Shown in pieces: positions 7,692 through 29,900 of a DNA stretch of 43,260 nucleotides; within the stretch, counting starts at the first letter, position 1; every line of letters begins with the position of its first letter. The notes beneath the pieces were generated by a model. That model did not search any database and was not told the origin of the DNA. It saw nothing but the letters and a program-made list of their open reading frames with translations. The stretch comes from a virus. The stretch lies in the IMG/VR virus record IMGVR_UViG_3300045988_009985. The stretch is one strand, 5' to 3'. Position numbers and translations under genes: made by a program.

Positions 7692-7696
7692 AAAAA

Positions 7697-7731
7697 ATCC
7701 CTGTAACCGCAACGGTTACAGGGATTTTCTT
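7697..7731. terminator. Rho-independent, bidirectional-type terminator
   Basis: atccctgtaacc and ggttacagggat form a 12-bp stem with a 5-nt loop. The hairpin is flanked by A7 upstream and TTTTCTTATTT downstream. Confidence 0.7.
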
Positions 7732-7772
7732 ATTTCCTCCAAAACACGTTTGTAAGTAACGTGTAAGCAACG

Positions 7773-10513: not shown

Positions 10514-10690
10514 CACGACCACCTCTCTTTACCGCCAGCATACGGCAGATATCTCCGGAGAAAGCGTCAAGAAAAGGGCGAAAAAGTGCGTGTCGTTTTT
10601 TGTCGAACAATTTTTCTTGCGTTTCCCACTTGTGCGCATTACAATAAAAATACCCTGATTCCTTTCCTGCGTTCCATGTGCAGCAGGGAA

Positions 10691-10726
10691 GAAAAAAAGA
10701 CACACCTACACGGTGTGTCTTTTTTC
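10691..10726. terminator. Rho-independent bidirectional terminator ending the late operon
   Basis: agacacacc-tacac-ggtgtgtct is flanked by A7 and T6. It overlaps the last codons of CDS 10706..10960. Confidence 0.7.
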
Positions 10727-10960
10727 TGCTCTCAGGCCGTCGGCCATTTTTTTGTATGCGGTACGGCGGCGGCGCTTTACGCCGTCAACCGATACGTTCA
10801 TACGGAACGCCTGCTCCACGCAGCTTCGTCCCCGCACGTCGCATTCCGCGATACACTGTGCCTCCTCCTGCGGCAAGTCAAAAGATTGGATCCACGCGAT
10901 AGCTCTCTTGGGTGCCATGCTATGCAGCATAGCCCGTATTTCACGGTGCTCCTGGTTCAT
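10706..10960 (-). CDS. Small sigma-70 region-4-like HTH regulator
   Basis: LPQEEAQCIAECDVRGRSCVEQAFRMNVSVDGVKRRRRTAYKKM resembles the region-4 HTH of phage ArpU/RinA-type or ECF-like regulators. Confidence 0.5.
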   Translation of the reverse strand: MNQEHREIRAMLHSMAPKRAIAWIQSFDLPQEEAQCIAECDVRGRSCVEQAFRMNVSVDGVKRRRRTAYKKMADGLRAEKRHTV

Positions 10961-11047: not shown

Positions 11048-14000
11048 TTACGGTGCTCGCCACCGGTTTTTCAATTCCTTCACGGACTCAACGCCCTGCT
11101 CATTTTTCATGATGCCCTCCACGCCCTGTCGCACGTCTGACGCCTCATAGCCGTGCTCCAGCATCTCTTTATAGATCAGCCGCGCCGTCTCGGTGTCTTT
11201 GTCCTTCTGCGCCCGGTACAGCAGCTCGCACCACCGTTTTCGGTTTCCGGCGCTCCTGTCCATGCGATAGATCGCTTTTTCCATCTCAAACATTACCCGC
11301 ACATTCCCTGTGTCGTTTGCGATGCTGCGAGCAATAGACCACATGTCGCGCCCCATGTTCCCAACGCTGATTCCAAAAACCTTGCTGCACATGAGCATGA
11401 CCTGTTTCAGGTTGTAGGCCGTGGTGGTTTTTGAATCCCCGCCCAAGCCCTTGATAAAGGTTTTGGACGTTCTGATAATATCGTCTGCCGCCGCTGCATC
11501 CATACGGTCAACGGTGTAGCCCTGCAAGATAGACAAAATATCCTTCAGGTACGGAATACGGCCTACCGGATTTATGTTGCTGATAAGGTTTCCCCCCAGC
11601 ACAACATTTTTCACGGCTTCGCCCGCATTTTTTTCATCACCGGAATAGCCGGTAAATGCTTCCAGAATACGTTCCGCCCAGTTCTTATCCTTGTCATCGT
11701 CCCGCAGACCGTCCACAATGGACTGCGCCAGTGCGTTCACCACGTCCGTCACCAGCAATGCGCCTACAGACCGCTTCAGCTGCTTCAGCGCCTTGCTGCG
11801 CTTATGCGGATTCGTTTCATACACCCATGCGTCGTAGGCCCGCATCAGGACGTTCAGGCTTTTCAGCGGCTCACCCATGAAAGACGTGGCCTGCCGCGTC
11901 AATGCGTCGCTGTCCCGCATGATCTGCGTGCGCTGCATAACGCCGTCCACCACCTGCGTCTGGTCGATCACATCCGTGAACAGCTCCGCCACCTGCCGGT
12001 AATACGCATCGCTGCCTACTTCCGTGTTTGTGTTTGCTGCCACCTGCCATTCGCAGGCGTTCCAGATTTTGCCCCACGTCACCGCGTCGGCCTTTCCGGC
12101 CAGTGCCATGCTCTTGTCGTTCAGCCATTCCCGCACGTTCCCGTCTGAACCGTATACCTCACGCGAAATGGTGTACCGGCTGCCCTGGTCAAAGCCGGAC
12201 GTATCCTTGATCCCCGCAATAGCCGCCCACTTTCTGGCCTTGTCCCATCCGTTCCCAGCCGTCGCGCCTTTCGTAAGGCCCTTTGTCATGTTCTCCGGCT
12301 CCAGCACCACAGCCGCACGACAGTATGCCGTAGGCTGCTGGATGATCACACGCAGGTTCGCGCCAACCGCTGCGCCTTTCGTATTGCCCACGATGCGTTC
12401 CACGGTCCTTGTGGTAGAGCTGGCGCTTTTTACCATGCCGTTCTGCACATCCCGCATCAGGTTCCGCCAATAGCTCTGGGCCGCGTCGCCGTACACGCCG
12501 GACAGGACCTGCCGCACATTCTTCCCGGTCAGGTTGCCCATGCTGTCCCTGTACCGGTAGTTGTACAGACGGTTGATGTCCTCCATTGGAGCCAACAGTG
12601 TGGCATACTTGATCATATCGCTGGCGTTCTGCGCAAACACGTCATACGCGCCGCCGATGTCCAGCGCATTGCTGGCGTTGGGGGTCAGCGCCTTTGCACT
12701 GCCCATATTCTTGATCGACCGTGCGTTGTCCGCGTCCTTCTCCACGCTGGAGGCCACCGCATCCTTTGCAGCCTTGATGGGCCAGTAATTCTCCTCCTTG
12801 AACTTACGGTAGCCGTAGACCTGCATACTGGCCTCGTTGCCCCACTCCGCCAGTTTTGTGCTTGCCAGCTTTTGCAGACCGTTTGCCACTTTGATCTGCT
12901 CAGGCGTCAGCACGGAGGTGATGGCCTTGATGTCCTCCTCCGTCAGCAGAATGTTGTCGTTCCCGCGCGGGATCGCCTTCAACTTACCGTTCCGCTGGAT
13001 CTCCGGCTGCACAATGCCGCCCACCGTCAGATGGTGCATAGCCTGTTCCCCGCGCCGCGCCAGATTGTACAGGTTCATGATCTGGTCGGTGGTCAGCGTC
13101 AGCTCCACACCACGGCTGGTGGTGAAGGTGTGCCGTTCACCCCGGTTTTTATACACGTCCGCATCCAGAAACTTTTTCGCCGCGTTCCGCAACTCCATCA
13201 GCATCACGTGCTCTCGGTCCTGCGCGTTCCGCAGCGTTCGGTATACCTGCATGCCGCCGTCGCCGTAGGCAGAGAAGAACGTATACGGATCTGCCATGTC
13301 CAGCGAAATTTTCCGGTTTCGCCGCTTCCGGCTCATGCTGCCCATCATAAGGCTTTCCGCCCACTCGCTGGTCCGTGCGTACTTCTGATTGGCAAGCGTC
13401 CGGTCGTAGCTGGTCAGCGTGGTCTCGATAGCACGCACCGTGTTCCACACGGTCTCCAGCTCCGTCACATTCATGTCAGCAATGCGCTTGCCGCCCAGCG
13501 CGGACAGAGAATCCAGCAGACCGCCGCTTTCCGTCAGCGCCGGGTCTACCACCATATTCCCCTCGTTGTCCAGAATATCATCATAGATCTGCTTGAGCCG
13601 GTCTGCCTCCAGCGTCCTTCTGGTGGGGTCGCCGTCCGCGTTTTTCCGCAGCCGCCCATTTTCGTCGTAGCTGTTCGCGCTCTCCAGGTTGATATTCCGC
13701 AGCAGGGCCGCCACCACTACGCGCAGCTCCTCCGGAATGTGCTGCTTGTCCGTGGGATTCACCAGTTTGCGGGAGATTGCGCCGGTGTGCCGTGCGATCC
13801 GCGCCCGCATCGCCGTTGCTTTTCGTCTTTCGCTGCCCTTCTTAGTCTTCTCGTTGTACTTTTTCCGCAGCGCGTTTACGTCGTCCCGGCGCTTCTGCCG
13901 CTCGCGGGACAGCATCTCACGCACACGACCGACGGCCTCCTGCTTCTCCAGCGCACGCCTGTCTGCATACGTTTTCTTCTGCCGCACCTGATCGGAAATC

Positions 14001-17000
14001 ATGCCGTCGATCAGCTGATTGGCGATCTCCTGCACCGCCGCATCCCTGTATCCCTCAAAGGGATTGTGGTAAACGCTGTCAAGGCCATCCAGCACATCCC
14101 CGATTTGCAGCAGTTTGTCCGCCTCCGTATACACGTCGCTGGGGAAATAGCCCTCGCCGAACATCTCCGTCAGCTCGCCATACACGGTATCCACAGACGT
14201 GCCATTGGACTTGTTCAGTTTCAGCGTTCCCATGTGGCTCTTTCGAAAATCGCCGTAGTTTGCCATGTCCCCGCCGAACTGGATGGTCTGCCGCTTCAAA
14301 TAGTCCCGAATTTCCAGCAGCTCCGCGCCGTACTCCGTCAGCTCAGAGGTGTTGTCCACAATGGCCTCCGCCACGGCCTTGGCGTGTGGCATCAAATCCT
14401 CCATCGTCACGTCCCGCTTCATCACAGCCTTGGCAAGCGCGTCCATCTCGCTCTGCACGTCCGCGTATTTCACATCGCTGCCGTACTCGCGGATGAGATT
14501 CTGCCCCAGCTTTTTCACGTCCCGCAGCACCACGGACGGTTCCTTGCTGATGCGCATTTCGCCTTTCAGCTCTTGTACCCGCTGCTTCAGCGCCTCGTTC
14601 TGCTTGGCCAGCGCGTTTCGCTCCTTTTTGAGTTCCCGCGCCTCGCGCTCCACCTCCGCCGCGCTTCGCAGCTGATAGCGGATATTGTTACTTTCTTTAA
14701 ACCTCTTGACTTCTTTCTGAAACTGTGCTAAATTTTCCTTGAGGGATGCATCTGTTATGTCCCCCAGCCCTGCTGGCTGGGCTACCTCTGACAGGTTGCC
14801 TCTCTCTTTTTTGTTGTAATCAAGCACGCGTCCATCTTTAATGGCATTACGAATTAGTTTATCCCATCCAACACGCCCACCATTTTCAAAGAAATTACGT
14901 TCCGCAATAGTCAGGACAACGTGTGGTCGCATTTCTCTGTTTTCTGGAGAGATTGCTTTCCGCGAATAAAAACTTAGAACAGCGTACAGCGGCGCATCGT
15001 TGTTTCCATATTCCGGTAGCATCATAATAACCGCCGGGTTTCCATCCTTTGTTTTGGTAGATATAGTCATGATCGGCTCGTTGATGCTCATAATGGCTCG
15101 CGTCATTTTCTCCACACCCAGATCGTGGAAATGAACTTCCGCCCCTTTGTGCTGCGTTGGGCGTCCGTCCTGAATAGCTTGCGCCTTGCTGACCATGTTT
15201 TCGTAAGCATGGTCACGCTGAATGTAAATGTCTCCGTTGATCCCCAGCTTTTCACTGATATATCGGGGCATAATGCTGACAGGAATCAGCTGATTCTGCC
15301 GGGTAGCTTTTTCGTTTAACGCATCATACAGCGCTGTAGAAACCGCCTGTTCGCTGAAACTTTTCAAAGAAAACCGTTTATCGCCGTCGCCCTCACCGGC
15401 GGCGGTTTTTGCTTTCTCCGCCTGCCGCTCCGCCGCGTCAAAGGCCGCCTGCCACTGCTTTGCAATGTTTTCCAGCTCGACAAAGTCCTTGCCGTATGCC
15501 TCCTGCGCCGCCATGTCGCGGTATTTGCCGGTGAACGCGGTTTTGACCTTGGCAAGAAATTCTTTTAAGCTGTCCAGCAGTTTCTGTGCCGCCGTCCGGT
15601 TTTCCTTTGAGAACTTGGCAAACAGGGCTGCGTCGTCCAGCATATCACCGGCGAAGTCCGCCGCAAGTTCGTCCATCACATCGTCCCGCGTCAGCGTCAC
15701 GCCCTCCTGCTCCGCCGTCTCCATGTACCGCTCCACGATCTCCGCCTCTGTGTCCGCGCCGTTTTCGCGCATCTTGTACTCCACCGCAGCCTGCCGGAAC
15801 TTCCGGTATTCAGAGGGGGACAAGTCCTGCATTCGGTGGGTGATCTCATGTGCGGTCACGTTCAAAAGAGGCTTGCCGCTGTCAGCGGCGATTTGGATGA
15901 GATTCTGCTCTTTGATGTACTGGCCGTTGGCTCTGCCGCCCAGCACCTGATCCACGATCTTGATCCGGACGCCCAGCTTCTTGCCCCATGTGTTCAGCGT
16001 GGCGGCGGTGTCCTTCTTTGCTGCGATCAGATACCGACTGTACTCGTTGTCCGCCAGACCGGCACCCGCCGTGGTTGTCACAGATGCCACCTCCGCGTTC
16101 TCCCGTGCCACTTGCGCCCGTGCGTCCTCCAGCCCAGCATTGTACGCCGCGTACCGCTGCTCCGGCGTCAGCATCGCCGCGTACTTGCCCTTGGCCTTGT
16201 CCGCTTCGATGCCGTTCAGTCCCGCGTTGTACACGCTGGAAAATCCTGCATACAGGGAAGGTGCGTCCTCTGCCGTCCGGCTCATTTCCTGATACGCCTT
16301 TTGCCCGTTTTCCAAAAAGCCGCCTACGCGCTTCTCTGCGCGTTTCTGCACAGCAGGGGAGGGAGGTGTAGCCCTCTGCGTTTCCTGCGTCACCTCGCGG
16401 CTTGCAAGCCCCGCAATGTCACGTTTTACCTGACTGATCGGCTTGTCCGTGTCCAGCTTCACGCCGGTGCGCTGCTCCAGCACCTCCACCGCCACCGGGT
16501 CACGGGCGATAGCCGCCGCCTGATTGCCGGTGATGGTCTCGCCCCGCGTCACAGCCTCCACCGCCTCCGCAGACTTTGCGTTCATCTCCGGCGCGGTGTT
16601 CTGCTGCACATCTCGGTTGTACTGCGCTTTTGCTGCGCCATACGCGACACGGTTGGCAAGGGCATTCACGCCCATTGTGCCGCCGGACAGCAATCCGCCG
16701 ACGATAGCGCCTCCAGCAAACTCTTCGGCAGCGGTGCCTGGATCAAAAATCGCGTTTTCGTTTACGCCAAAATACGGATTATCGGCATCATATACCGCAT
16801 TTTGCAGTGTTCGGTCGATGATGCCCTGCAGAACCTCCTCCTTGCCCTCGTCAAGCATGGTGTTCACCAGCGTCCGCCACGCCGCCTGGTTCGCCACCTT
16901 TCCGGGCAGGTTTTGGATACCGCCGCTGATCTCGATCTCCGACCCCAGAAGCGCGTTCCCGATGGCGTACAGCGCGGCCCGCTTGTCATCCACGCCCTCC

Positions 17001-17773
17001 TCCTTTGCGTCGTTGTAGCTGTGGGAGAAGATCTGCGCCGCGCTGGAGAGATAGTTGGGGTCCTTGGCCCGTGCCGCCGCCACATTCTTCAGCGTCTGCA
17101 CCAGCGCGGGGGAACTCTTGGCCGCCGTCTGCGCTGCCAAGGTGCCCGCCTTTGCCGCCGCGCTGGTGCCGCCGGAGGCGAAGGCGATGGCCAGCGAGGG
17201 CAGCGCCTCCACCGCAGACGCCAACAGATTCTCCCCCTTCTCCGCATACTGGCCACCCTTGGCGGTGTTTTCCGCGTACTTCTGCTGCAGCCCCTCCTGT
17301 TCGAGGGCAATATTTTCGTCCCATGCGTTGAAAAAACCGCGCTCGTTCATCGGTGCGATATTTCCAAACAGCGCGTTCCAGCCCTTGGCCACCGTGCGCT
17401 CTCCAAAGGCCAGCGGCGTGGTCACATCTCGTGCGATAGCCGAAAGACCCATGCCTCCCGCTTTCAGCAGGCCCTTTCCATAGTTGTACCCCTTGTTGGC
17501 CTGCTTGTCCGCACCATAATTCCCCGCGCCAAGGGCGGAAATATTGTAGTCGTTTTGCTTTTTGGAGCTGAAATATTCCTTGTTTGCCTGCATTGCAGCC
17601 TTGTCCGTATGCCATGCAACGCCGTCAGAGGAGCCTTTGCTCGTATCAACACCGACATATGTGGCCTTTGGGCCGCGCTTTTCCTGCGCTGCAGAGGGGC
17701 CAAGCGTTCCGGTATATGTTACTTTTCGCTTTTTCCCGTTTCGTTCGGTATTCCCAACGTAAGTTACCTTCAT
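11048..17773 (-). CDS. Giant multidomain virion-type protein (2241 aa) with one HExxH zincin motif
   Basis: It is a single uninterrupted ORF. The N-terminal approx 380 aa contain Gly/Ala-rich hydrophobic segments. AHEITH lies at 15836-15850. There is a low-GC domain at aa 800-1010, a coiled coil at aa 1030-1080 and a long C-terminal globular region. The gene sits in the late operon. Confidence 0.85.
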   Translation of the reverse strand: MKVTYVGNTERNGKKRKVTYTGTLGPSAAQEKRGPKATYVGVDTSKGSSDGVAWHTDKAAMQANKEYFSSKKQNDYNISALGAGNYGADKQANKGYNYGKGLLKAGGMGLSAIARDVTTPLAFGERTVAKGWNALFGNIAPMNERGFFNAWDENIALEQEGLQQKYAENTAKGGQYAEKGENLLASAVEALPSLAIAFASGGTSAAAKAGTLAAQTAAKSSPALVQTLKNVAAARAKDPNYLSSAAQIFSHSYNDAKEEGVDDKRAALYAIGNALLGSEIEISGGIQNLPGKVANQAAWRTLVNTMLDEGKEEVLQGIIDRTLQNAVYDADNPYFGVNENAIFDPGTAAEEFAGGAIVGGLLSGGTMGVNALANRVAYGAAKAQYNRDVQQNTAPEMNAKSAEAVEAVTRGETITGNQAAAIARDPVAVEVLEQRTGVKLDTDKPISQVKRDIAGLASREVTQETQRATPPSPAVQKRAEKRVGGFLENGQKAYQEMSRTAEDAPSLYAGFSSVYNAGLNGIEADKAKGKYAAMLTPEQRYAAYNAGLEDARAQVARENAEVASVTTTAGAGLADNEYSRYLIAAKKDTAATLNTWGKKLGVRIKIVDQVLGGRANGQYIKEQNLIQIAADSGKPLLNVTAHEITHRMQDLSPSEYRKFRQAAVEYKMRENGADTEAEIVERYMETAEQEGVTLTRDDVMDELAADFAGDMLDDAALFAKFSKENRTAAQKLLDSLKEFLAKVKTAFTGKYRDMAAQEAYGKDFVELENIAKQWQAAFDAAERQAEKAKTAAGEGDGDKRFSLKSFSEQAVSTALYDALNEKATRQNQLIPVSIMPRYISEKLGINGDIYIQRDHAYENMVSKAQAIQDGRPTQHKGAEVHFHDLGVEKMTRAIMSINEPIMTISTKTKDGNPAVIMMLPEYGNNDAPLYAVLSFYSRKAISPENREMRPHVVLTIAERNFFENGGRVGWDKLIRNAIKDGRVLDYNKKERGNLSEVAQPAGLGDITDASLKENLAQFQKEVKRFKESNNIRYQLRSAAEVEREARELKKERNALAKQNEALKQRVQELKGEMRISKEPSVVLRDVKKLGQNLIREYGSDVKYADVQSEMDALAKAVMKRDVTMEDLMPHAKAVAEAIVDNTSELTEYGAELLEIRDYLKRQTIQFGGDMANYGDFRKSHMGTLKLNKSNGTSVDTVYGELTEMFGEGYFPSDVYTEADKLLQIGDVLDGLDSVYHNPFEGYRDAAVQEIANQLIDGMISDQVRQKKTYADRRALEKQEAVGRVREMLSRERQKRRDDVNALRKKYNEKTKKGSERRKATAMRARIARHTGAISRKLVNPTDKQHIPEELRVVVAALLRNINLESANSYDENGRLRKNADGDPTRRTLEADRLKQIYDDILDNEGNMVVDPALTESGGLLDSLSALGGKRIADMNVTELETVWNTVRAIETTLTSYDRTLANQKYARTSEWAESLMMGSMSRKRRNRKISLDMADPYTFFSAYGDGGMQVYRTLRNAQDREHVMLMELRNAAKKFLDADVYKNRGERHTFTTSRGVELTLTTDQIMNLYNLARRGEQAMHHLTVGGIVQPEIQRNGKLKAIPRGNDNILLTEEDIKAITSVLTPEQIKVANGLQKLASTKLAEWGNEASMQVYGYRKFKEENYWPIKAAKDAVASSVEKDADNARSIKNMGSAKALTPNASNALDIGGAYDVFAQNASDMIKYATLLAPMEDINRLYNYRYRDSMGNLTGKNVRQVLSGVYGDAAQSYWRNLMRDVQNGMVKSASSTTRTVERIVGNTKGAAVGANLRVIIQQPTAYCRAAVVLEPENMTKGLTKGATAGNGWDKARKWAAIAGIKDTSGFDQGSRYTISREVYGSDGNVREWLNDKSMALAGKADAVTWGKIWNACEWQVAANTNTEVGSDAYYRQVAELFTDVIDQTQVVDGVMQRTQIMRDSDALTRQATSFMGEPLKSLNVLMRAYDAWVYETNPHKRSKALKQLKRSVGALLVTDVVNALAQSIVDGLRDDDKDKNWAERILEAFTGYSGDEKNAGEAVKNVVLGGNLISNINPVGRIPYLKDILSILQGYTVDRMDAAAADDIIRTSKTFIKGLGGDSKTTTAYNLKQVMLMCSKVFGISVGNMGRDMWSIARSIANDTGNVRVMFEMEKAIYRMDRSAGNRKRWCELLYRAQKDKDTETARLIYKEMLEHGYEASDVRQGVEGIMKNEQGVESVKELKNRWRAP

Positions 17774-21107: not shown

Positions 21108-21908
21108 TTACTCCCCCAGCAGCTTGCCCCAGGTGCCTTTACCGGCGATACCGTCCGCACCAAGCTTGTACTTGGTCTGGAACTTCTTCAGCGCCGCCTC
21201 GGTGCCGCCGCCGAAGTCTCCGTCCGCACCGGCAGAGCCGCAGGAGAACCCGTAGGCGATCAGCGCCGCCTGCAGCGTCTTCACGTCCGCGCCCTTCATG
21301 CCGCGCCTGAGCATCCGTACCTGCATGGGCAGCGTCGCGTCCTTCTCCGCAGGCACCGGCACCGGCGCGTTGGCGCTCTCCACGAAGGGTACGCTCAGCG
21401 CCGCGCACAGCCCCTTGGCGATGGTCTCGCCGATCAGGGTGGTGTTGTCGATGATCCACTGCGCGATGCGGGGGACATCGTGGAAGTCCGTCTCGATGTA
21501 CACCGTCGTGGCGGCAGGATGCTTCACCTCGTACAGTGCGGGGTATGCCCGGATAACATCCGGTGCACCCGGCGTCACAGGCCCCAGCACATCCAGCACC
21601 GCCTGACACGCCTTGTACCCGGCGCTGTTCCGGTCGCCGCTGTAACAGAACAGATGCGTACCGCTGGCCTTGCCGTTGCAGGCGTTGGAGTGGATGGGCA
21701 CATGCAGGTCAGCCTTGAAGCGGTTGGACGCCGCCACACGGTTTGCCATAGTGTCGTACTGCCCCAGCATCACTTCCACACCGGAGCGCTCCAGCGCGGC
21801 CTTGCAAGCCTCTGCGATGCGCCCGCACTGGATGGCCTCGGTAGTGCCGCCCACCGCATAGCTGTTGCTTCGCTGGTTGCTGGGGGACAGAAACACCCTC
21901 TTAGCCAT
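21108..21908 (-). CDS. Endolysin: N-acetylmuramoyl-L-alanine amidase (Amidase_3-like) plus a PG_binding_1 domain
   Basis: The N-terminal part reads FLSPSNQ...ADLHVPIHSNA...TDFHD. The C-terminal part reads GADVKTLQAALIAYGFSCGSAGADGDFGGGTEAALKKFQ. The holin gene is adjacent. Confidence 0.85.
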   Translation of the reverse strand: MAKRVFLSPSNQRSNSYAVGGTTEAIQCGRIAEACKAALERSGVEVMLGQYDTMANRVAASNRFKADLHVPIHSNACNGKASGTHLFCYSGDRNSAGYKACQAVLDVLGPVTPGAPDVIRAYPALYEVKHPAATTVYIETDFHDVPRIAQWIIDNTTLIGETIAKGLCAALSVPFVESANAPVPVPAEKDATLPMQVRMLRRGMKGADVKTLQAALIAYGFSCGSAGADGDFGGGTEAALKKFQTKYKLGADGIAGKGTWGKLLGE

Positions 21909-22116
21909 TGTTGCCAGCCTCCTTGTGGTACTGCGCCGTGCTGATGCACAGCACCGCGCCGAGGAACGTGTCCACGGCGGTGATGGTGGTCACCACCTCG
22001 TCAGCGTAGGGCCACGCCCATACCGCCGCCAGCGCCGCGTACAGCGTGGCCACGGCGGGCATAACGATGATGACCAGCCATTTCAGGATGTCGTATACCT
22101 TGTTGTTCAGTTTCAT
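21901..22116 (-). CDS. Holin (Dp-1-like family)
   Basis: KVYDILKWLVIIVMPAVATLYAALAAVWAWPYADEVVTTITAVDTFLGAVL provides two hydrophobic helices. The gene overlaps the endolysin start. Confidence 0.75.
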   Translation of the reverse strand: MKLNNKVYDILKWLVIIVMPAVATLYAALAAVWAWPYADEVVTTITAVDTFLGAVLCISTAQYHKEAGNNG

Positions 22117-22158
22117 AACAAATTCCTTTCCGGCCTGTCGGCCTGTTCAATTTTTGTC

Positions 22159-22488
22159 TCACCGTATGGGCAGCTTCCGCACTTCCTCCATGACGCGCCG
22201 TGCGCTGCCGTTGCCGCCCATCTCCTCATACGGCTCGTAGAGGTACACCTGCAAGTTCTCATACTCGTCCTGTGTGACGTAGCCCCGCTCGATGTACACC
22301 ATGCCGAGGTGGATAATGCGGTCGTGGGCCAGCCCCACCAGCATCTTCCGCTCCGCATCGTCTGCCTTGCTGCGCTTGGCCGTCAGCTCCATCCGCTTGA
22401 GGATCACCTTGCTCACCACGCCCCACAGGGCGGTGGAGGTCAACAGTGCCACAAGAAGCGGCACGCCGACATTTGTCCACACTTCCAT
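22159..22488 (-). CDS. Single-pass membrane protein, possibly a second holin or lysis regulator
   Basis: AGGAGGTG precedes the ATG at 22488. The N-terminal TM helix is WTNVGVPLLVALLTSTALWGVV. The longer track ORF extending to 22899 is a shadow over the fibre gene. Confidence 0.6.
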   Translation of the reverse strand: MEVWTNVGVPLLVALLTSTALWGVVSKVILKRMELTAKRSKADDAERKMLVGLAHDRIIHLGMVYIERGYVTQDEYENLQVYLYEPYEEMGGNGSARRVMEEVRKLPIR

Positions 22489-22499
22489 CCGGTCACCTC

Positions 22500-23633
22500 C
22501 TACAACTCGGCGCTGAGCACGATCTGTGCCCCTTGCCGCATGAACAGGGCGTAGGTCTCGCCCGCCGTCAGGCCGCTGGACGTAAAGATCAGACTTCGCA
22601 TGCTGCAAGCCCCGCCGGTCTGCATTGCCCAGCCGCCCGTGACCCTGGTGACGTCCTTCAAGGCGCTGGACGTTTTGCCCGCCTTGAAACGCGATACGCC
22701 GCCGGTTGGGATGGTGGGTGTAGGCGATATGCGCATGGGAACAGCCAGTGGGATGGGTACCCACAGGTCGACGGTGTTGTTGGCGTACCCGATGGCCACG
22801 CCGTTGCCGCTTGTGTCGTAGGGCGTGGCGATGACTTGCAGATAGCGCATACACTTGGTCAACTCCTCGCCGTAGTCGGGCATCTCGTTCAACACCCACG
22901 CGCCGCTGCTGTTCTGATGGGCCAGCGTCTGCTCCGTCCCCACCTCCAGTTTGACGGCCACGAGTTTTTTCCCCGCCGCCGTGACTGTGACCGTCTTGGT
23001 TGCGCTGTCGTAGGTCGGCACCACATCGCCCACTCCGGCCTGCGTCAGGGCAGATGCCGTCACAGTGCCGACCGGCGCAGTCTCCAACACCTGCTGCATG
23101 GTTCCGTTCAGCGTGATGCCGTCCGTGTTGATCGTCACGCTGCCGCTCACCAGCTTCCAGCGGTCCAGAAAATACCCTGCGCTGCTGATGGTGCCGCTGA
23201 CGTCCCGCTGGTTCACCGGATCGCCGAAATACCAGTTGTCCAGCAGGTTCCTGTTGCAGGGCTGCACTTTGGCAGCGATGACGCTTCCGCTGATGGCGAT
23301 ACCATCGCCCGCCGTATACGGTGCAGGTGCGCCGATGTTTGACCGAGCCTGCGCCTTCTGGGCGTCGGTCAGAGTTTGCGGGGCATTGTACTTGACGGCG
23401 TTTTGTACGTCTGCAAGATCACGCCCAAATTGCGCCTCAGAGCCGACATAGCCACTGGCAGATGCCGTTTCGTATGCGCTTTTCCCGTCAGCCCCAGGGT
23501 CGCCCTGCGCACCGGGCGCACCGTCCTTGCCGGGAAGCCCTCGTTCGCCTTGTTTTCCTTCTGCACCGGCTGGGCCTGTCGCGCCCTGCGCGCCAGCTGG
23601 GCCGACCACCAGTCCCAAATCAATTTCAGGCAT
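22500..23633 (-). CDS. Collagen-like tail fibre / receptor-binding protein
   Basis: The N-terminus has G-X-Y repeats (GPAGAQGATGPAGAEGKQGERGLPGKDGAPGAQGDPGADGK). The C-terminal domain is beta-rich. Confidence 0.75.
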   Translation of the reverse strand: MPEIDLGLVVGPAGAQGATGPAGAEGKQGERGLPGKDGAPGAQGDPGADGKSAYETASASGYVGSEAQFGRDLADVQNAVKYNAPQTLTDAQKAQARSNIGAPAPYTAGDGIAISGSVIAAKVQPCNRNLLDNWYFGDPVNQRDVSGTISSAGYFLDRWKLVSGSVTINTDGITLNGTMQQVLETAPVGTVTASALTQAGVGDVVPTYDSATKTVTVTAAGKKLVAVKLEVGTEQTLAHQNSSGAWVLNEMPDYGEELTKCMRYLQVIATPYDTSGNGVAIGYANNTVDLWVPIPLAVPMRISPTPTIPTGGVSRFKAGKTSSALKDVTRVTGGWAMQTGGACSMRSLIFTSSGLTAGETYALFMRQGAQIVLSAEL

Positions 23634-23646
23634 TTCCTGTTCCTCC

Positions 23647-24660
23647 TTACACTGTCAGTATTAAATGACCGGCGCTGTTAATGGAGAGATTCGGCGGTAC
23701 GTTCCCCGTATAAGACAGGATCAGATGTCCGGTCTCATCGATCCGAAAACCATACATACCATCCGCCTCTACCACTGCGCCAGCTGGGCCGGTATCGCCC
23801 TTTTCGCCGGGCGCACCGTCCTTGCCGGGCGCACCGTCCTTGCCGGGCGCACCGTCCTTGCCGGGGATGCCCTGTTGTCCGGTGGCTCCTGTCGGGCCGG
23901 TTTTTCCTTTTCCGCTGATGCTGCTTTTGTAAAAGCTGCCGCTTTCCGAATCCCATAGCATCCAGTATCCGTCCCCGCCTAAATATGGGTATTTCCCAAC
24001 GGCGCTTTCCGCCTTTGCTGCGGACTGTCCGGCTGAAACGGCGTCACTTTTTGCTGAAACGGCATCTTGTTTGGCGCTTTTCGCGCTTGCCGCCGCTTTC
24101 GTTTCGCTTTCTCTTGCGGCATTGGCGTTATATGCCGCGCTGATTTCACTTTGTTTAGCGGCATTTTTGCTTTTCTCGGCATCTTCGGCGGCGGATCGTG
24201 CATCCGCTATCGTTCCGATGATCGCTTCGATCTGTGTCTGCATCTGCGCTGCCTGTGTAGGCGGCACATCCTGTTCCGTTTCTGCGCTGCCGCTCCACTT
24301 GCTTTCGCCCACCGTAAAGGTGCCATATACCGCCGTAGTCGCCCTCGCCTCTTTGCCGCCGGAAGCCTCTGCCCCCTTGATGGCAAGTGCCATATCTCCC
24401 GCGTACTTTTTTGCCCCGTTCGGCACCGGCACAAGGTAGACGTTGGTGGTGCCGCTCTCCAACATTTGTGCAGCCAGCAGCACCTCCACGGTGTTCTCGC
24501 CCAGCGCGTCGCAGAACTGTACCGTTTTTGCCAGCCCATCCCACATAGGCGAGAACTCCATCCGAAGCACCACATCGTTGTGGCTTCCCGCCGCGCCGAT
24601 CAGCACCTTGTCACCGGCGATGTATTCATTCTGTATTTTCAGCGGGATTGTTCTTGTCAT
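23647..24660 (-). CDS. Fibre/baseplate-type protein: BppU-like N-terminus, Ala/Ser-rich coil, collagen-like repeat
   Basis: The N-terminus reads IPLKIQNEYIAGDKVLIGAAGSHNDVVLRMEF, followed by an AAxSAxxA coil and then GKTGPTGATGQQGIPGKDGAPGKDGAPGKDGAPGEKGDTGPAG. Confidence 0.7.
   Translation of the reverse strand: MTRTIPLKIQNEYIAGDKVLIGAAGSHNDVVLRMEFSPMWDGLAKTVQFCDALGENTVEVLLAAQMLESGTTNVYLVPVPNGAKKYAGDMALAIKGAEASGGKEARATTAVYGTFTVGESKWSGSAETEQDVPPTQAAQMQTQIEAIIGTIADARSAAEDAEKSKNAAKQSEISAAYNANAARESETKAAASAKSAKQDAVSAKSDAVSAGQSAAKAESAVGKYPYLGGDGYWMLWDSESGSFYKSSISGKGKTGPTGATGQQGIPGKDGAPGKDGAPGKDGAPGEKGDTGPAGAVVEADGMYGFRIDETGHLILSYTGNVPPNLSINSAGHLILTV
23809..23862. repeat. 18-bp x 3 perfect tandem repeat encoding (GKDGAP)3
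   Basis: gggcgcaccgtccttgcc occurs three times. A near copy, ggcgcaccgtccttgccggg, also occurs in the neighbouring fibre gene at about 23517. Confidence 0.9.
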
Positions 24661-24676
24661 GTTTCACGTCCTTTCT

Positions 24677-24742
24677 GCTGTGACACGGCGCAGCAAGTCA
24701 AAAGGGAAACGCCCCTCTTGCCTTGCTGCGCCGTGTCACAGC
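24677..24742. promoter_or_regulatory. Perfect 21-bp inverted repeat with a 24-nt spacer, between the capsid-module gene and the fibre gene
   Basis: The arms are gctgtgacacggcgcagcaag (24677-24697) and cttgctgcgccgtgtcacagc (24722-24742). Confidence 0.8.
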
Positions 24743-24773
24743 CATCTTTGTGTCTCGCGGTAGTATGCAGTTG

Positions 24774-25166
24774 TCAGTTCAGCTGCGCCTTGACCGCCTC
24801 ATATTCCCGGCTCTTCTGCTCCAGCATCTCCGCCGTCGCCGCGTCCTGTGCCATAGAGCGGCGGATGATGTTGTACACCTCGCGGGGAATGCGGACGTGC
24901 TTGCCGCGCTGGATGCGGTACACCTTGCCGTTCCAGCCCACCACAATGTCGTCCTTGTACCGATCATCATCCTTGAACGCCCAGAACGGCACCATGCCGT
25001 CGTCGGAGGCTTCACCTGCCGCCATGCCGCGCATAACGGCCTCTGCTGCTTTCGCGGCCTCCTTGGCATCCTCAGCCTCCTTCTTGGCCTGAGCCAGCGC
25101 CTCATTGGCTGCTGCCAGCGCCTTTTCCATCTCCTCCGGAGTTCTCTGCTTCTTGTTGTCAGCCAT
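24774..25166 (-). CDS. Hypothetical head-associated protein (130 aa)
   Basis: AAGGAGG lies 7 nt upstream of the ATG at 25166. It has an Ala/Glu/Lys coiled N-terminus and a small C-terminal domain, and sits directly after the capsid gene. Confidence 0.55.
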   Translation of the reverse strand: MADNKKQRTPEEMEKALAAANEALAQAKKEAEDAKEAAKAAEAVMRGMAAGEASDDGMVPFWAFKDDDRYKDDIVVGWNGKVYRIQRGKHVRIPREVYNIIRRSMAQDAATAEMLEQKSREYEAVKAQLN

Positions 25167-25193
25167 GCTCATTCCTCCTTGCATTTTTGGTAT

Positions 25194-25217
25194 GCGGAGG
25201 GGGATGACCCCCTCCGC
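25194..25217. terminator. Strong hairpin just downstream of the capsid gene, with no U-tract. It may be an mRNA stabiliser or a partial terminator.
   Basis: gcggaggggg-atga-ccccctccgc forms a 10-bp perfect stem. Confidence 0.45.
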
Positions 25218-25224
25218 GTTACCG

Positions 25225-26508
25225 TCAGTTCATCGCGCCGCTCTCAAAGGTAGAGGCGGATTCGATGCGCACCATGTACTGCTCCACCAGACGCTCCGCC
25301 ACCTTGGTCAGCTTCCAGCCTGCGGTGGCACGCTGATTCAGCGGGTCAGCCGTACCGGAGGAACCCAGCTGCTTGACGATGTGCTGCAGGCCGCCGCCCT
25401 CCAGCTCCGTCACGCCGTAGGCGTCTGCGCCGAGGATCAGGGTAGAGTACACATCGCGGCCATTTGCGCCGCCCTCGCCGGGATAGATCACGGTGCTGGC
25501 GGCAGGCGTAGTGGCAGGCGCGGTCTTCACGGTGATGGTGGCAGCACCGGCAGCACCGGCAGCAGCGGACGCCACCTCCAGCAGCTCTCCGCCCACCAGA
25601 ATGTCTCTGCCGGTCAGCGCCTTGGCCTGATTGGCGGAGAGCTTTTCGGTGATGGTAATGACCTTGCTGGCCGCGCTCTTCACTGTCAGGTTGCGGGCGC
25701 TTGCCTCGTCGCCGTCCTCGATCTTCAGGGGGGCGGCGTGGAAGATCTTGGCCTCGGTGGTCTCCACAAAGCGCACACCCTCGATCTTGCCGATCTCGCC
25801 CTCATAGATGCCATCGGGGTCGGAGTAGGTCTTCACATCCACCCACTTCTTGTCGTTCATCAGGTCGTAGGCGGTGTCGGGATGGATGATACCGGCAAAG
25901 TAGCCGTTGATCTTCTGTGCGTTCATGACCTTCAGGGCGCGTACAGCCTTGCGGATGTCGTCCACCGTCAGGTACTTGTTGTTCTCGGCGGTGCTGTCGC
26001 CGCCCACCAGCTCAGAGCGATCCTTCGCCCCACCGGCGTACACCACATTGGTGCCGCCAGCCAGCACCTCTCGGGTGATGGTGTCGGCGGTACGGCCTGC
26101 CTGAGATGCCAGCAGGCGGGTGGCCTGTACCAGGTTGTTGTCGATAGCCGTCAGCTCCAGAATGTCGGACAGTTCGATGTAACCGCCGTACTGCTTGATG
26201 GTGGCGCGGATCACGCCCATGCTCATCTTCTGCCCGGCGGGGGTCACACCTTCGGTCAGAGGCACCAGAGCCTTGGGCAGACTGTCGTACTTCCGGAACT
26301 CGATGGTTTTACCGCTGTTCTTGGGGATGGGGTGCTTCTGGCCAAACTGGTCATGGATCAGCTCCGGCTCGGCGAGGTTGATGAGGCGCATAGAGTAATA
26401 CACCTTCATCTCATCGCTGAGACCGGGATCCAGCGTGGTATTGGTGTATGCGTCAAACAGGTTCAGCACCACCGGCATCAGGTACAGGTCGTTGTAAATT
26501 TTGTTCAT
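25225..26508 (-). CDS. Major capsid protein (HK97 fold, N4-gp56-like family)
   Basis: Diagnostic segments are KNSGKTIEFRKYDSLP...LTEGVTPAG...IKQYGGYIELSD...IIHPDTAYDL...GVRFVETTEA...DPLNQRATAGWK. The gene follows the scaffold gene. Confidence 0.8.
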   Translation of the reverse strand: MNKIYNDLYLMPVVLNLFDAYTNTTLDPGLSDEMKVYYSMRLINLAEPELIHDQFGQKHPIPKNSGKTIEFRKYDSLPKALVPLTEGVTPAGQKMSMGVIRATIKQYGGYIELSDILELTAIDNNLVQATRLLASQAGRTADTITREVLAGGTNVVYAGGAKDRSELVGGDSTAENNKYLTVDDIRKAVRALKVMNAQKINGYFAGIIHPDTAYDLMNDKKWVDVKTYSDPDGIYEGEIGKIEGVRFVETTEAKIFHAAPLKIEDGDEASARNLTVKSAASKVITITEKLSANQAKALTGRDILVGGELLEVASAAAGAAGAATITVKTAPATTPAASTVIYPGEGGANGRDVYSTLILGADAYGVTELEGGGLQHIVKQLGSSGTADPLNQRATAGWKLTKVAERLVEQYMVRIESASTFESGAMN

Positions 26509-26547
26509 GAAATAGCTCCTTTCCGCAAATCGCAGCGGAGCCGTAGG

Positions 26548-27501
26548 TCAAAAGGAAATGCGCTCCCCTCTTGCTACTCTCCGCTCGATCTCCTCAAAGT
26601 CCGCTCTCGTCAGCTTTGAGGGATCCGTTTTTGTAACAAACGCGCTGTTGGAGCTGGTGCCGTTCTCACTGGGACGATTTCCCTTGGCCCGAACGTTATC
26701 GGCCACCTTCTTCTCCGTGCTGGCGGCAGCGGCCTGTACCGCGTTGCCCATCAGCTCGTCAAAGTGCAGCACCTTGTAGGCGTGCTCCATCGGTGTACCG
26801 GCTTTCAGCAGGTTCACAAACTCGTCGTTTTGCAGCTCCTGCACAAGGTCAAAGTTCTGGTACATGGGATTGCCCCTCATGGCCTCCGCCTCCATGTACC
26901 ACTTCTCGCTCTGCGCCCGGATCTGCGCCTCCTGCTGATGCATCTGCTGGCCGCGAAGCAGCTCGGCGTTCTCCCGCCGCAGACGGCGGAACTCCTTGTA
27001 CTGCTCCTCGCTCATGCCCGCCTCCTCGGCGGCTTCACTCCAGTAGGCGTGGTCGTTGTCCACGGCCTCCAGCAGACGCTTTGCGTCCCCGTCCGCGATG
27101 CCGTAACGCTCCATCAGCGTATCCAGCACCGGCTGGTAAGACTGCATCCGCTTCTCCGTCTCCCGCGCCTCCTTGAAGCGCCGGTCGATCATCCGCTGTG
27201 TCTCTTGGGTGTACAGATCCTTGTACTCCCCATTGATCAGCTCCCGGAAAGCCTTTTTCTTGGCCTCCTGCGCGTCGGACGTGGTCTCCACGTCCTTCAC
27301 CTTATCATCAGTCCCGGCGTCGGACTGTACTTCCGTCTGGCTCTCCGACTGTTTGCCGTACTTGACGTTGGCCAGTGCGCCCGATTTGCTCTGGCGGGTG
27401 GTACCGGAGCTTGCCTGTGTCTCGCCCTGTGCGGTGGCAGCTGTCGCCCCATCGCCGCCCTCGCCGTCAAAGAGGCAGAGGGAAATTCTGTAAAGGTACA
27501 T
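26548..27501 (-). CDS. Scaffolding protein with an N-terminal Prp-type leader
   Basis: GAAGGAGG precedes the ATG at 27501. The protein is acidic and helical. The N-terminus is MYLYRISLCLFDGEGG. It lies between the Prp protease and the capsid gene. Confidence 0.65.
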   Translation of the reverse strand: MYLYRISLCLFDGEGGDGATAATAQGETQASSGTTRQSKSGALANVKYGKQSESQTEVQSDAGTDDKVKDVETTSDAQEAKKKAFRELINGEYKDLYTQETQRMIDRRFKEARETEKRMQSYQPVLDTLMERYGIADGDAKRLLEAVDNDHAYWSEAAEEAGMSEEQYKEFRRLRRENAELLRGQQMHQQEAQIRAQSEKWYMEAEAMRGNPMYQNFDLVQELQNDEFVNLLKAGTPMEHAYKVLHFDELMGNAVQAAAASTEKKVADNVRAKGNRPSENGTSSNSAFVTKTDPSKLTRADFEEIERRVARGERISF

Positions 27502-27641
27502 ATCTGTTCCTCCTTCAATTCGCGGGCATATCGCTCCCGTGCAGCGCTCCCCATCCACCCTTGCGGCGTGCGGCGGCTCGTTGCCGCCGTCACACCGCGC
27601 AGGTAGGGAGGAAGTATCTATATCATAGAAAGGGGGCGCGG

Positions 27642-27682
27642 TCTCCCGCACCCCTAAAACAAAAAATATTTTTATTTTTTTT
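27642..27682. promoter_or_regulatory. Conserved approx 41-bp element, copy 1 (copy 2 at 31957-31998)
   Basis: tctcccgcacccctaaaacaaaaaatatttttatttttttt compares with tctcccgcgcacccctcaaacgaaaaatttttttattttttt. Both copies lie upstream (minus sense) of late-gene blocks. Confidence 0.6.
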
Positions 27683-27959
27683 CGATTTTTACGGAAATCG
27701 CCTCCGGCTTTGCCATTTCCAGCTGCAAAAAGCCGATTTTCAGCAGATCGTACAGCCACCTACCGCCGCGCCAGCGCAGGTACGCATCCCCGCTGTCCAG
27801 CCGTTCCAGCACCAGCTCCGCCTCCTGCGTATTGTGCAGCCATCCCGCAGCCGCGTACAAAAGACAGCTTACCGCCGCACACACGTCAGGGTATCCCGTG
27901 GCGTGTCCCTTGCACCTCACGGAGCAGCTGTCCCCGTGATGCAGTGTTACCTCCGTCAT
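27672..27959 (-). CDS. prp: Prp-family cysteine protease (ribosomal-processing protease-like)
   Basis: KGHATGYPDVCAAVSCLL matches the GHA...D(I/V)VCAAVS His/Cys dyad signature. An ATGA overlap links it to the portal stop. Confidence 0.75.
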   Translation of the reverse strand: MTEVTLHHGDSCSVRCKGHATGYPDVCAAVSCLLYAAAGWLHNTQEAELVLERLDSGDAYLRWRGGRWLYDLLKIGFLQLEMAKPEAISVKIEKK

Positions 27960-29887
27960 AGGCTGGGCGTGCTCCGCTTTGCCAATGCCTGCCCGTAGCC
28001 GGTCATAGGCGTCTGCGCCTCCATGATGCCGCTTGCAAGCTGGCTGGTGGCCTCCGCAGGTGCGCCGCCGCCAGTCTGCGCCGGTGCATCGCCCGCGCCC
28101 TCCTGCGGCAGGATAGCGCCCGTCAGCATGGCGATCTGCGACTGCATCTGCATCAGCATATTCAGCAGGGTCTGCCCCTGCATCACCTTTTCCCGCACGG
28201 TCTGGATACCCTCGAAGTCCATCATCTCCAGCGCCGTCAGACTGGCCTGCGCGTTATCCGGATTAAAGAATCCCATGGAGTACAACTCCTTGGCCCGCTC
28301 GTTCTGTTCCATGCGGGAGAAAGGATTCTTTTTCTGCGCCTTGATTTTGAGGTCAAACACCGGCTTGCGGTACATTTCGTTGCCCATCGTATCCAGCCCG
28401 GTCACCTGATCCTGCAAGCCCGCGTTGTCGAAATCTACGAACTGATACTCGTTGCCCTCGCCGGTAATGCGGAAGCTGCGGCTCACATCGTAAAACTGCC
28501 TTATCAGTTCCACGCACAGCGTGTTAATCTGGGTGTAGGCACGGTAGCTGGCGGAGATCATATCCCGGCTTGCCTTGTTTCCGGCCTCCTGCAAGGCGGC
28601 AATCGCCGCTGCCGCCGTCACGTTGGAGGTGCCGCCGGAGTTCACGTCGCGGTTTGCCGCCGTGTCCTTCATTTCCTCGATCTTCATCTGCGCCACCGTG
28701 ACGTAGATATCACTGAGCGGCTGGGTGACGATCTCCTTGATCCTCTGGTCGCCGATCTCGCCGTTGACGTGTACCAGAGGGCGGTTCCAGTCGATAAATT
28801 CCTGCTCGTTGATGGCCGTACTCTCCGACACGAAGAAGCGCTTTTTGGTCGCCATCATCGCGTTTTCCAGAATGTTGGCGCTGAGCTTGTCAATGTATAG
28901 CTGGGGGTCTTTGCAGATCGCCACATAGCCAAAGCCGATAGGCGTACCCTTTTCCGGGTACATCACGTCCAGCACAACAGGGTACATCCCGTGGTCGTAA
29001 AAGCCCCGCTCCCGGTATTCCGGATCGTTCTCACTGGCATACAGCAGGGTAGACCCCACAAACTTGATGTAGTGCAGCGCCGTCCTGCCGCTGGGCGTCT
29101 TGACCTTGTAATACCAGTCCACCACCACGCTCTTTTCGCTGGTGTCCACGGTGTCATCGTAGATGTACTCCTTCACGTCCACGACCTTGCCCTTCTGCTT
29201 GCCCTTGAGCTGGGGGTACTCGCTGTCCAGCAGGTCGTTGTCCACCAGATCCACGATAAACAGGTTGCGGCTTTTTTGGATGTCCGTGATGCCCGGCTCC
29301 CAGAACAGGTTCAGCAAGTCGATGTTCCGGATCTCGATGTCGCCCAGCCCATTGTCCTTCCGGCTGTCCCAAAACACGCCGTATACCGCCGTTCCGTGCT
29401 TCAGCTTCTCCCACCAGTTGTCCGAGTACACCTGCTCAAAATGGTTGTATTCCTGCACCACCGGCAGGATCTGGCTCAACGTCTTGGCGCTCTGCTCGTC
29501 GCTGCGCTCACGGGGCAGCACCACCGGCTCCGGGTAGTTGTCCATCGCGTCCGCGTGCTTGTTTTGGATGGTGTTAAACAGCCACGCCGACGTAGGCTTT
29601 GGCTGGGGAGGGGAGGAGAGGACTTCCTTGCCGCTCTTATCCACCAGCTTGGCTTTACTCTGACCGATGCCCTCCCAGTGCCGCAGCTCCCACCACAACT
29701 CGTCGTTGACCACACGGCTCTCCAAATTGCCCTTGCCGTTTTTGTACCGCGTCAGCAGGTCGATACCGCGCTCCACGTCCTTTTCCGTAATGGTAGGCGT
29801 GTCGTCCGTCCGCTCCAGCAGCATCGCCGCCATCTCCGGCGGCATACCGTCCTCCGGCACAATGCCGGGGATGCCGTATCTCTCCAT
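27956..29887 (-). CDS. Portal protein
   Basis: It is 643 aa and lies immediately downstream of TerL. The N-terminus LLTRYKNGKGNLESRVVNDELWWELRHW is portal-like. Confidence 0.8.
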   Translation of the reverse strand: MERYGIPGIVPEDGMPPEMAAMLLERTDDTPTITEKDVERGIDLLTRYKNGKGNLESRVVNDELWWELRHWEGIGQSKAKLVDKSGKEVLSSPPQPKPTSAWLFNTIQNKHADAMDNYPEPVVLPRERSDEQSAKTLSQILPVVQEYNHFEQVYSDNWWEKLKHGTAVYGVFWDSRKDNGLGDIEIRNIDLLNLFWEPGITDIQKSRNLFIVDLVDNDLLDSEYPQLKGKQKGKVVDVKEYIYDDTVDTSEKSVVVDWYYKVKTPSGRTALHYIKFVGSTLLYASENDPEYRERGFYDHGMYPVVLDVMYPEKGTPIGFGYVAICKDPQLYIDKLSANILENAMMATKKRFFVSESTAINEQEFIDWNRPLVHVNGEIGDQRIKEIVTQPLSDIYVTVAQMKIEEMKDTAANRDVNSGGTSNVTAAAAIAALQEAGNKASRDMISASYRAYTQINTLCVELIRQFYDVSRSFRITGEGNEYQFVDFDNAGLQDQVTGLDTMGNEMYRKPVFDLKIKAQKKNPFSRMEQNERAKELYSMGFFNPDNAQASLTALEMMDFEGIQTVREKVMQGQTLLNMLMQMQSQIAMLTGAILPQEGAGDAPAQTGGGAPAEATSQLASGIMEAQTPMTGYGQALAKRSTPSL

Positions 29888-29900
29888 ATCCTTTTCCCCC

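Follow-up and report, generated by a model that had tools for sequence, protein, structure and literature searches.

A giant late protein of a temperate gut phage, probably a polyvalent protein with an exchangeable payload cassette

What does a single protein of 2241 amino acids (aa) do in a phage genome of 43,260 nucleotides (nt)? The question is raised by IMG/VR virus record IMGVR_UViG_3300045988_009985, analysed here over its full length (the window), in which one open reading frame (ORF), hereafter the giant, occupies 6726 of the 43,260 bases. An initial annotation, made from the sequence alone, had recognised the single ORF and put its share at 15.6% of the genome, which our figure of 15.5% bears out. 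It had also suggested that the giant takes the place of any recognisable tail genes, and that it fits proteins of the polyvalent or internal virion kind, which some phages and conjugative elements inject along with their DNA. Our analysis favours the second suggestion and not the first. The giant is probably a phage polyvalent protein, one made late, carried inside the capsid and ejected into the host together with the DNA, with a fixed frame and an exchangeable payload. Homology and genomic context support this assignment, as its relatives carry PBECR5, ART-PolyVal, LPD3 and MuF_C domains, its gene lies in a block of virion genes, and its C-terminal module has fold matches among proteins annotated as belonging to this class.

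The ORF is confirmed as a real gene by more than 1000 homologues of its protein and by a GC content at third codon positions (GC3) of 75-80% across most of its length; a Shine-Dalgarno sequence, AGGAGG, lies 6 nt 5' of its ATG. Several disparate domains are joined within it, namely a zincin-like region, an alpha/beta cassette and an all-alpha module of 1200 aa (Table 1). The cassette is the part that is exchanged. The nearest relatives of the giant are of two kinds, those collinear with it over their full length and those that match it in two segments only, from residue 1 to about 805 and from about 1030 to 2241. In the second kind the N-terminal flank is 84-99% identical and the C-terminal flank 89-99% identical, whereas the middle is different and longer. 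Pfam searches of these middles gave matches to PBECR5 (193 bits), ART-PolyVal (85), MuF_C (47.8) and LPD3 (28.9), all above the family cutoffs. The 119 closest relatives have ten cassette types, 175-766 aa long. Most frequent is the PBECR5 type with 74 clusters, and the type found in the giant comes second with 26 members including this protein. Among 16 distant relatives ART-PolyVal was found in six, MuF_C in three and PBECR5 in two, with LPD23, GNAT and methyltransferase domains in single members. The exchange is also sharp in the DNA. Compared with phages holding a PBECR5 or an ART cassette, homology breaks off and resumes at the positions given for the two junctions in Table 1, with flanks 98.5% identical on the N-terminal side and 94-98.5% identical on the C-terminal side.

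A compositionally foreign domain at residues 800-1010 had been noted initially. It is real and sharply bounded, and by base composition extends over residues 805-1030, where GC is 46% and GC3 48%, against 58-66% and 75-80% in the remaining gene. The cassette itself matches MuF_C (PF18819) with an E value of 8e-4 and 19.9 bits, below the cutoff of 27.6, and three homologues of the cassette, 222-291 aa in length, independently show this match, likewise below the cutoff, from profile position 5 or 6 to 100. MuF_C has been classed as a BECR-fold RNase (PMC5512222). The cassette can thus be described as a divergent MuF_C/PBECR-like putative RNase; a Foldseek search with the AlphaFold2 model that contains it, a multi-domain query, gave no significant PDB match for a BECR fold. 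It is present in three to five of 149 representatives of the giant's relatives. Homologues 50-56% identical to it, of 222 and 291 aa, were also found outside giants, at L087 6506-7174 and L089 1455-2330. There they lie amid bacterial genes (among them ribosomal protein genes and a rubredoxin/flavoprotein gene), each beside a small unannotated ORF, and because of these surroundings the two homologues (P0276 and P0277) appear to be stand-alone genes. Such a homologue and its small ORF could be a toxin-antitoxin-like pair. Downstream of the giant itself, six genes keep 95-99% identity in phages with any of three cassette types (its own, PBECR5 and ART). Since these genes stay the same whichever cassette is present, no immunity gene changing with the cassette was found among them.

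Both ends of the cassette are marked by a short motif, (R/K/Q)-(F/Y)-(S/Q)-L-(K/R), which has exactly two matches in the giant, one at each cassette boundary. Both copies fall in low-confidence linkers of the structural model, the first with a predicted local distance difference test score (pLDDT) below 50. In relatives the motif typically reads D-I-R-F/Y-S-L-K and is present in two to five copies at module boundaries, and copies of it likewise border the LPD3 and PBECR3 modules in a polyvalent fragment that is unrelated. Across 144 representatives 307 matches were counted, compared with 119 expected by shuffling; 69 of the 307 are no more than 20 aa from where the C-terminal module starts, and most others are in the variable region upstream. 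Neither the motif nor strain-level swapping of cassettes appears to be described in the main text of PMC5512222, in which the terms 'linker' and 'processing site' are absent and 'cleavage site' occurs in one reference title only. A literature search for the motif string found nothing, the string being confounded with papers on 'IRFs'.

The frame downstream of the cassette consists of the C-terminal module. The initial annotation had set apart about 1100 residues here as being of unknown fold; the stretch in fact extends over about 1200 aa, for which no match was obtained in Pfam or, by sequence or by fold, in the PDB. A coiled coil had been placed at residues 1030-1080, and this agrees with a long helix that opens the module in the AlphaFold2 model (residues 1043-1072) and with weak coiled-coil-type Pfam matches at 1031-1077. 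Modelled from 35 sequences, the module is all-alpha with a predicted template modelling score (pTM) of 0.61. It contains a near-invariant R-D-D-D at residues 2024-2027 (nt 11693-11704). Searched alone, the 1200 aa retrieved 4261 clusters at 50% identity with E<=1e-3, or 2885 with E<=1e-30, nearly all in proteins of 2000-4300 aa. One homologue ends in a Peptidase_M23 cell-wall hydrolase domain. Foldseek matches in BFVD were to chunks of giant metagenomic phage proteins, with E values from 1e-76 to about 1e-8 among the matches listed, under the names Nuclease, MuF C-terminal domain-containing, PolyVal ADP-ribosyltransferase and LPD-containing. All fold matches of the module were to giant phage proteins whose annotation is polyvalent, ART or MuF_C. 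The PDB sequence matches obtained for the giant, whether with the single sequence, the 35-sequence profile or a 23-sequence profile of the peptidase region, were to low-complexity segments only (huntingtin and apolipoprotein E, for example) and were discarded.

The N-terminal part of the frame begins, after a predicted disordered end, with a Gly/Ala-rich helical region. Both hydrophobic stretches quoted for it in the initial annotation are present, in windows at residues 181-202 and 355-373, and the region is kept in about 16-53 of the 149 representatives, more so towards its C-terminal end. The single zincin signature reported at 15836-15850 likewise holds, as the only HExxH of the giant is HEITH at residues 642-646 (nt 15836-15850). 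A D-E pair, the candidate for the acidic third metal ligand, follows at residues 701-702 (nt 15668-15673), within a helix of the model at 696-713. In an alignment of 23 peptidase regions, 29-51% identical, the H, E, T and H of this signature are invariant, as are a Tyr ten residues on and the D-E pair 55 further, which is the pattern of a retained metal-binding active site, and a peptidase activity is treated here as putative. The AlphaFold2 model places a three-stranded sheet (residues 603-629) before the HExxH helix (636-651), a layout that fits the zincin core described in PMC5512222. The region had no match in Pfam, none in the PDB with the focused 23-sequence profile, and none in the PDB by Foldseek. 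The extreme N-terminus (residues 1-47, window 17632-17773) has three K(V/A)TY(V/T)G repeats, two of which are modelled with low confidence as a beta-hairpin. They are kept in close relatives only and could be a capsid-targeting or portal-binding signal.

Does the giant replace a tail? The late genes were identified by PHROG and Pfam scans and by gene calls on near-identical contigs. On the minus strand their order is TerL, portal, Prp-family protease, scaffold, capsid protein, two fibres, holin, endolysin, four genes for proteins of 115, 530, 119 and 357 aa, and the giant. Among the large genes of the operon the giant thus comes last, behind those for TerL, portal, capsid, fibres and the 530-aa protein of phrog_511, and takes the slot in which podoviruses hold their ejection proteins. 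No late ORF matched a tape-measure, tube, sheath, baseplate or chaperone family in Pfam or PHROGs, and this much of the initial claim that tail genes are missing stands. The claim that none is recognisable was too strong, because two collagen-like fibre genes and the phrog_511 'internal virion protein' can be recognised. The capsid protein is of the N4-gp56-like type, as first proposed. Given a P22-type portal and this N4-like capsid, the layout is best read as that of a short-tailed (podovirus-like) phage, in which tape-measure, tube and sheath genes would not be expected. The order 115/530/119/357/giant is also found beside giants just 36-39% identical to this one. The 530-aa protein matches a 600-aa protein of contig locus L091 with an E value of 2e-47, and the 357-aa protein matches a 420-aa protein of the same locus at 7e-16. 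As the block is conserved, the giant has conserved virion partners and is no stand-in for a tail.

Table 1. Positions in the window of the parts of the giant and of the other late features
Feature	Position	Strand	Basis and remarks
Giant ORF	11048..17773	-	ATG start, 2241 aa; ORF listing and translation; assigned to polyvalent proteins (probable)
Predicted disordered N-terminus, aa 1-160	17294..17773	-	pLDDT <50; conserved in at most 9/149 representatives; GC3 0.60
Gly/Ala-rich helical region, aa 161-480	16334..17293	-	Hydropathy scan; helical in AlphaFold2 model
Zincin-like metallopeptidase region (putative), aa 481-796	15386..16333	-	In 77/149 representatives
Junction motif 1, R-F-S-L-K, aa 800-804	15362..15376	-	Motif scan; DNA breakpoint at 15384
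Low-GC cassette, aa 805-1031	14681..15361	-	GC 46%; confident alpha/beta domain in AlphaFold2 model
Junction motif 2, R-Y-Q-L-R, aa 1032-1036	14666..14680	-	Motif scan; DNA homology resumes at 14661 or 14682
All-alpha C-terminal module, aa 1037-2241	11051..14665	-	phrog_22978, E = 0; AlphaFold2 pLDDT 78.6
Intrinsic terminator closing the late operon	10686..10725 (hairpin about 10693-10725)	-	Free energy -22.6 kcal/mol, z -4.5, then U-run
Partner gene, 357 aa	17782-18855	-	
Partner gene, 119 aa	18855-19214	-	
Partner gene, 530 aa	19211-20803	-	phrog_511 'internal virion protein'
Partner gene, 115 aa	20749-21096	-	
Remaining late module	21108..31343	-	PHROG and Pfam scans, gene calls on near-identical contigs
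Endolysin, Amidase_3 and PG_binding_1	21108-21908	-	
Collagen-like tail fibres	23647-24660 and 22500-23633	-	
Capsid protein, N4-gp56-like	25225-26508	-	Pfam Phage_capsid_3; BLASTP against N4 gp56, E 2e-7
Scaffold	about 26548-27501	-	
Prp-family cysteine protease	27672-27959	-	Pfam 27.7 bits, cutoff 27
P22-type portal	27956-29887	-	
Large terminase TerL	29901-31343	-	

The window is a temperate phage. It carries a tyrosine integrase gene at 6444-7529, and a near-identical copy of the phage is integrated beside groES/groEL in a metagenomic contig (locus L004, 14461-16504). Between the free and the integrated form homology stops at about 7660, a point flanked by the integrase gene and a gene for a protein of 131 aa, and attP lies at about 7530-7772. 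The GroEL adjoining the prophage shares 96% identity with its counterpart in an uncultured Clostridiales genome and 86% with the one of Oscillospiraceae/Oscillibacter, and these identities point to a host among Gram-positive-type gut Clostridia, Oscillospiraceae-like.

The giant most resembles the polyvalent proteins (Iyer, Burroughs, Anand, de Souza, Aravind 2017, PMC5512222), with which it shares the single giant polypeptide, the late virion-gene context and a fixed HExxH domain of putative zincin type, and whose domains PBECR5, ART-PolyVal, LPD3, LPD23 and MuF_C are found in its close and distant relatives. It differs in having no above-threshold Pfam domain itself, its peptidase region and C-terminal module lying outside all Pfam models. 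The closest experimental analogue is gp47 of phi24B (vb_24B_48), a 2811-aa protein that proteomics found to be abundant in virions of this temperate Stx podovirus, that is absent from cryo-electron microscopy density, and that its authors propose to be an ejection protein (bioRxiv 10.64898/2026.04.10.717836). Like the giant, gp47 is of polyvalent type and its gene comes last among the late genes of a temperate phage with a short tail, and its peptidase region has a similar HExxH...P-x-E-Y signature, although the resemblance is weak (hhalign E 0.0033, probability 9.7%). The phi24B protein differs in its Gram-negative host and in its domain set (LPD5, LPD1 and LPD38), and neither the C-terminal module (hhalign) nor the partner genes (BLASTP) showed significant homology to phi24B. 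The virion RNA polymerase of N4, gp50, is the founding example of polyvalent proteins and combines a zincin peptidase domain with a C-terminal region required for encapsidation (PMC5512222). It is likewise a giant, is encapsidated and injected, and is encoded after gp53-gp52-gp51 downstream of a related capsid gene, whereas the giant studied here has no RNA polymerase module. No similarity was detectable between the giant and gp50 by hhalign, or between the partner genes and the N4 neighbours including gp53 by BLASTP. With gp47 already found in virions and N4 gp50 as the founding example, the initial view that a giant injected effector in such a phage would be notable was overstated. What is worth following up is the widespread uncharacterised C-terminal module, the junction motif, and the strain-level turnover of payloads that have no immunity partner.

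By analogy with these systems we infer that the giant is packaged and injected. The frame, made up of the Gly/Ala-rich helical region, the zincin-like HExxH domain and the 1200-aa C-terminal module, would mediate encapsidation and passage across the wall and membrane of the Gram-positive-type Clostridia host. It would act jointly with its conserved partners, the proteins of 530, 119 and 357 aa, and its hydrophobic and helical parts may aid the crossing of wall and membrane, judging by the family and its analogues. The payload, at residues 805-1031, would act within minutes of the start of infection, against the nucleic acids or the defences of the host. Within this phage population it is exchanged motif to motif, in flexible linkers, for a PBECR5 nuclease, an ART-PolyVal ADP-ribosyltransferase, LPD3 or other modules. 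Several results weigh against this reading. No Pfam polyvalent domain reaches its curated threshold in the giant itself, the MuF_C match included, and neither the giant nor any detectable homologue of its C-terminal module has been placed in a virion by direct evidence. A toxic RNase payload with no matching immunity gene is awkward for a temperate phage. In hhalign comparisons of the C-terminal module profile with the phi24B giant and with N4 gp50 nothing significant was found. The N-terminal AlphaFold2 model is weak overall (pLDDT 68.9, pTM 0.38), and Foldseek searches of both models against the PDB gave no match with E<=0.001 and query-normalised TM-scores of at most 0.10, the N-terminal model being a poor query since it is multi-domain with its first 160 residues disordered. 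With no significant fold match in the PDB for either model, the zincin fold and the BECR fold are both unconfirmed. Lastly, no significant link was found between the number of motif copies and whether a protein has the peptidase domain (p = 0.08).

A further proposal we regard as tentative and rather doubtful. It holds that the zincin domain and the 1200-aa module form a dedicated, widespread system for loading and injecting interchangeable enzymes in phages of gut Firmicutes, with (D)-I-R-(F/Y)-S-L-K as a processing site. The giant would then be a polyprotein, in which its own HExxH peptidase or another virion protease would cut at the motif and free the effector in the capsid or in the host. 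Plug-in payloads delivered by virions would need no immunity gene on this account, because the precursor would be inactive until cut. Putative cutting at the motif by the peptidase lacks support so far, as the link between copy number and domain is not significant.

A purely structural role is unlikely. The giant would in that case be a counterpart of T7 gp15/gp16 or P22 gp7/gp20/gp16 that only builds a channel, and its cassette a tolerated spacer or an accessory for binding or cutting the wall, with no effector acting inside the cell. Its likeness to podovirus ejection proteins (T7 gp14/15/16, P22 gp7/20/16) is real, as the gene has the same position after capsid and tail genes and the protein is helical and partly hydrophobic; the all-alpha C-terminal module and the hydrophobic segments would suit a membrane-active protein. 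T7 gp16 has a transglycosylase domain, and the Peptidase_M23 domain at the end of one homologue is a comparable fusion to a wall hydrolase. The authors of the phi24B study also propose a conduit role for gp47 (bioRxiv 10.64898/2026.04.10.717836). However, the giant is one polypeptide and not three and has enzyme cassettes, and those of its close relatives are intracellular-type enzymes, namely BECR nucleases and ADP-ribosyltransferases. Their fast turnover on a frame 95-99% identical is the pattern of conflict effectors, unlike that of structural parts. PDB searches by sequence and by fold found no similarity to T7 gp15/gp16 or to any other solved ejection protein.

We consider it quite improbable that the giant is a polymorphic toxin of the MuF type, which particles released by lysogens would deliver to non-lysogenic competitors while the lysogens are kept immune by an immunity protein. 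The precedent is given by the MuF polymorphic toxins (Jamet et al. 2017, PMC5576092), which are also packaging-module proteins of temperate phages with exchangeable nuclease or ADP-ribosyltransferase toxin domains. That a temperate phage should have a variable cassette of toxin type within an otherwise conserved delivery frame agrees with this, as do the cassette homologues of 222-291 aa that appear to be stand-alone chromosomal genes beside small ORFs. In those toxins a MuF domain stands at the N-terminus, the toxin forms the C-terminus, and an immunity gene is linked. None of the three was found for the giant: no MuF domain (PF04233) was detected in the whole protein or in pieces of it at E<=1, the variable part is internal and not C-terminal, and the constancy of the downstream genes across the own, PBECR5 and ART cassettes leaves no co-varying immunity gene.

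It is very improbable that the giant substitutes for a tail or acts as a tape measure in place of absent tail genes. The lack of detected tape-measure, tube, sheath and baseplate families in the window, and a long helical protein with hydrophobic stretches, would suit that role, but the portal and capsid point to a short-tailed particle, the phage does have fibre genes and the four conserved partners, the giant matched none of the tape-measure families of Pfam or PHROGs, and an enzyme cassette varying from 175 to 766 aa is unfit for a length ruler. That the giant is a virion RNA polymerase, like N4 gp50 or the giants of crAss-like phages, is barely credible: it shares with gp50 its position relative to an N4-like capsid gene and a comparable size, and has the near-invariant R-D-D-D, but no RNA polymerase family in Pfam or PHROGs and no PDB entry matched it, hhalign against gp50 was not significant, and the R-D-D-D region, which is all-alpha, shows neither a double-psi beta-barrel nor a T7-like polymerase fold and had no fold match in the PDB.

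Several further observations concern the remaining window. The intrinsic terminator, located by reading and folding the sequence, follows closely on the giant gene, which is essentially at the distal end of the late operon as initially stated; only an 84-aa ORF (10706-10960, minus strand) intervenes. This ORF has a basic C-terminus and is kept in relatives, where it has no gene call on their contigs. Just 3' of the terminator a stretch of about 96 bp (10593-10688) does not align to relatives 95-99% identical, which have 5 bp there, and a replacement of about 260 bp within a 141-aa gene (9796-10055) is likewise unaligned to them. A relative with 98% identical flanks (L094, 396-1208) has a CHAP and PG_binding_1 endolysin in place of Amidase_3 and PG_binding_1, so that module swapping in this phage population extends beyond the giant gene.

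A motif of the form hydrophobic-x-hydrophobic-F-D, resembling the Prp cleavage motif of ribosomal protein L27, lies near the N-termini of the capsid protein (VLNLFD, residues 15-19) and the scaffold (SLCLFD, residues 8-12), and among the late proteins scanned is confined to these two, which suggests that both head proteins undergo N-terminal trimming of Prp type. The phage's Prp protease was considered as the enzyme for the junction motif and rejected, as it seems aimed at L-x-L-F-D sites, which are found at the capsid and scaffold N-termini only, and no Prp-type site is in the giant. A tandem array at 2007-2339, with a unit of 27 bp repeated 12.3 times at 92% matches, lies inside an ORF at 1812-2702 (minus strand) and encodes a 9-residue peptide repeat, over which near-identical contigs align in several registers. 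In the early region are genes for a DNA methyltransferase fusion of 678 aa (35705-37741, minus strand) and for a protein similar to phosphoadenosine-phosphosulfate reductase (38062-39138, minus strand), both of which are candidates for DNA-modification or anti-restriction functions.

The frame of the giant is very common, its C-terminal module alone occurring in more than 4000 clusters at 50% identity, and the commonest variant of this phage is present in more than 100 blocks of the metagenome index. For annotation, a missing long-tail gene set together with one giant ORF should be taken as the normal signature of this podovirus-like group and not as an anomaly. The sharp boundaries from motif to motif amount to a design rule, by which natural payloads could be excised or particles built that deliver a chosen protein. 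If proteins of this kind are injected, they would give temperate phages of uncultured gut Clostridia a major means of manipulating the host cell as they enter it, and would hold a large reservoir of unexplored nucleases and ADP-ribosyltransferases.

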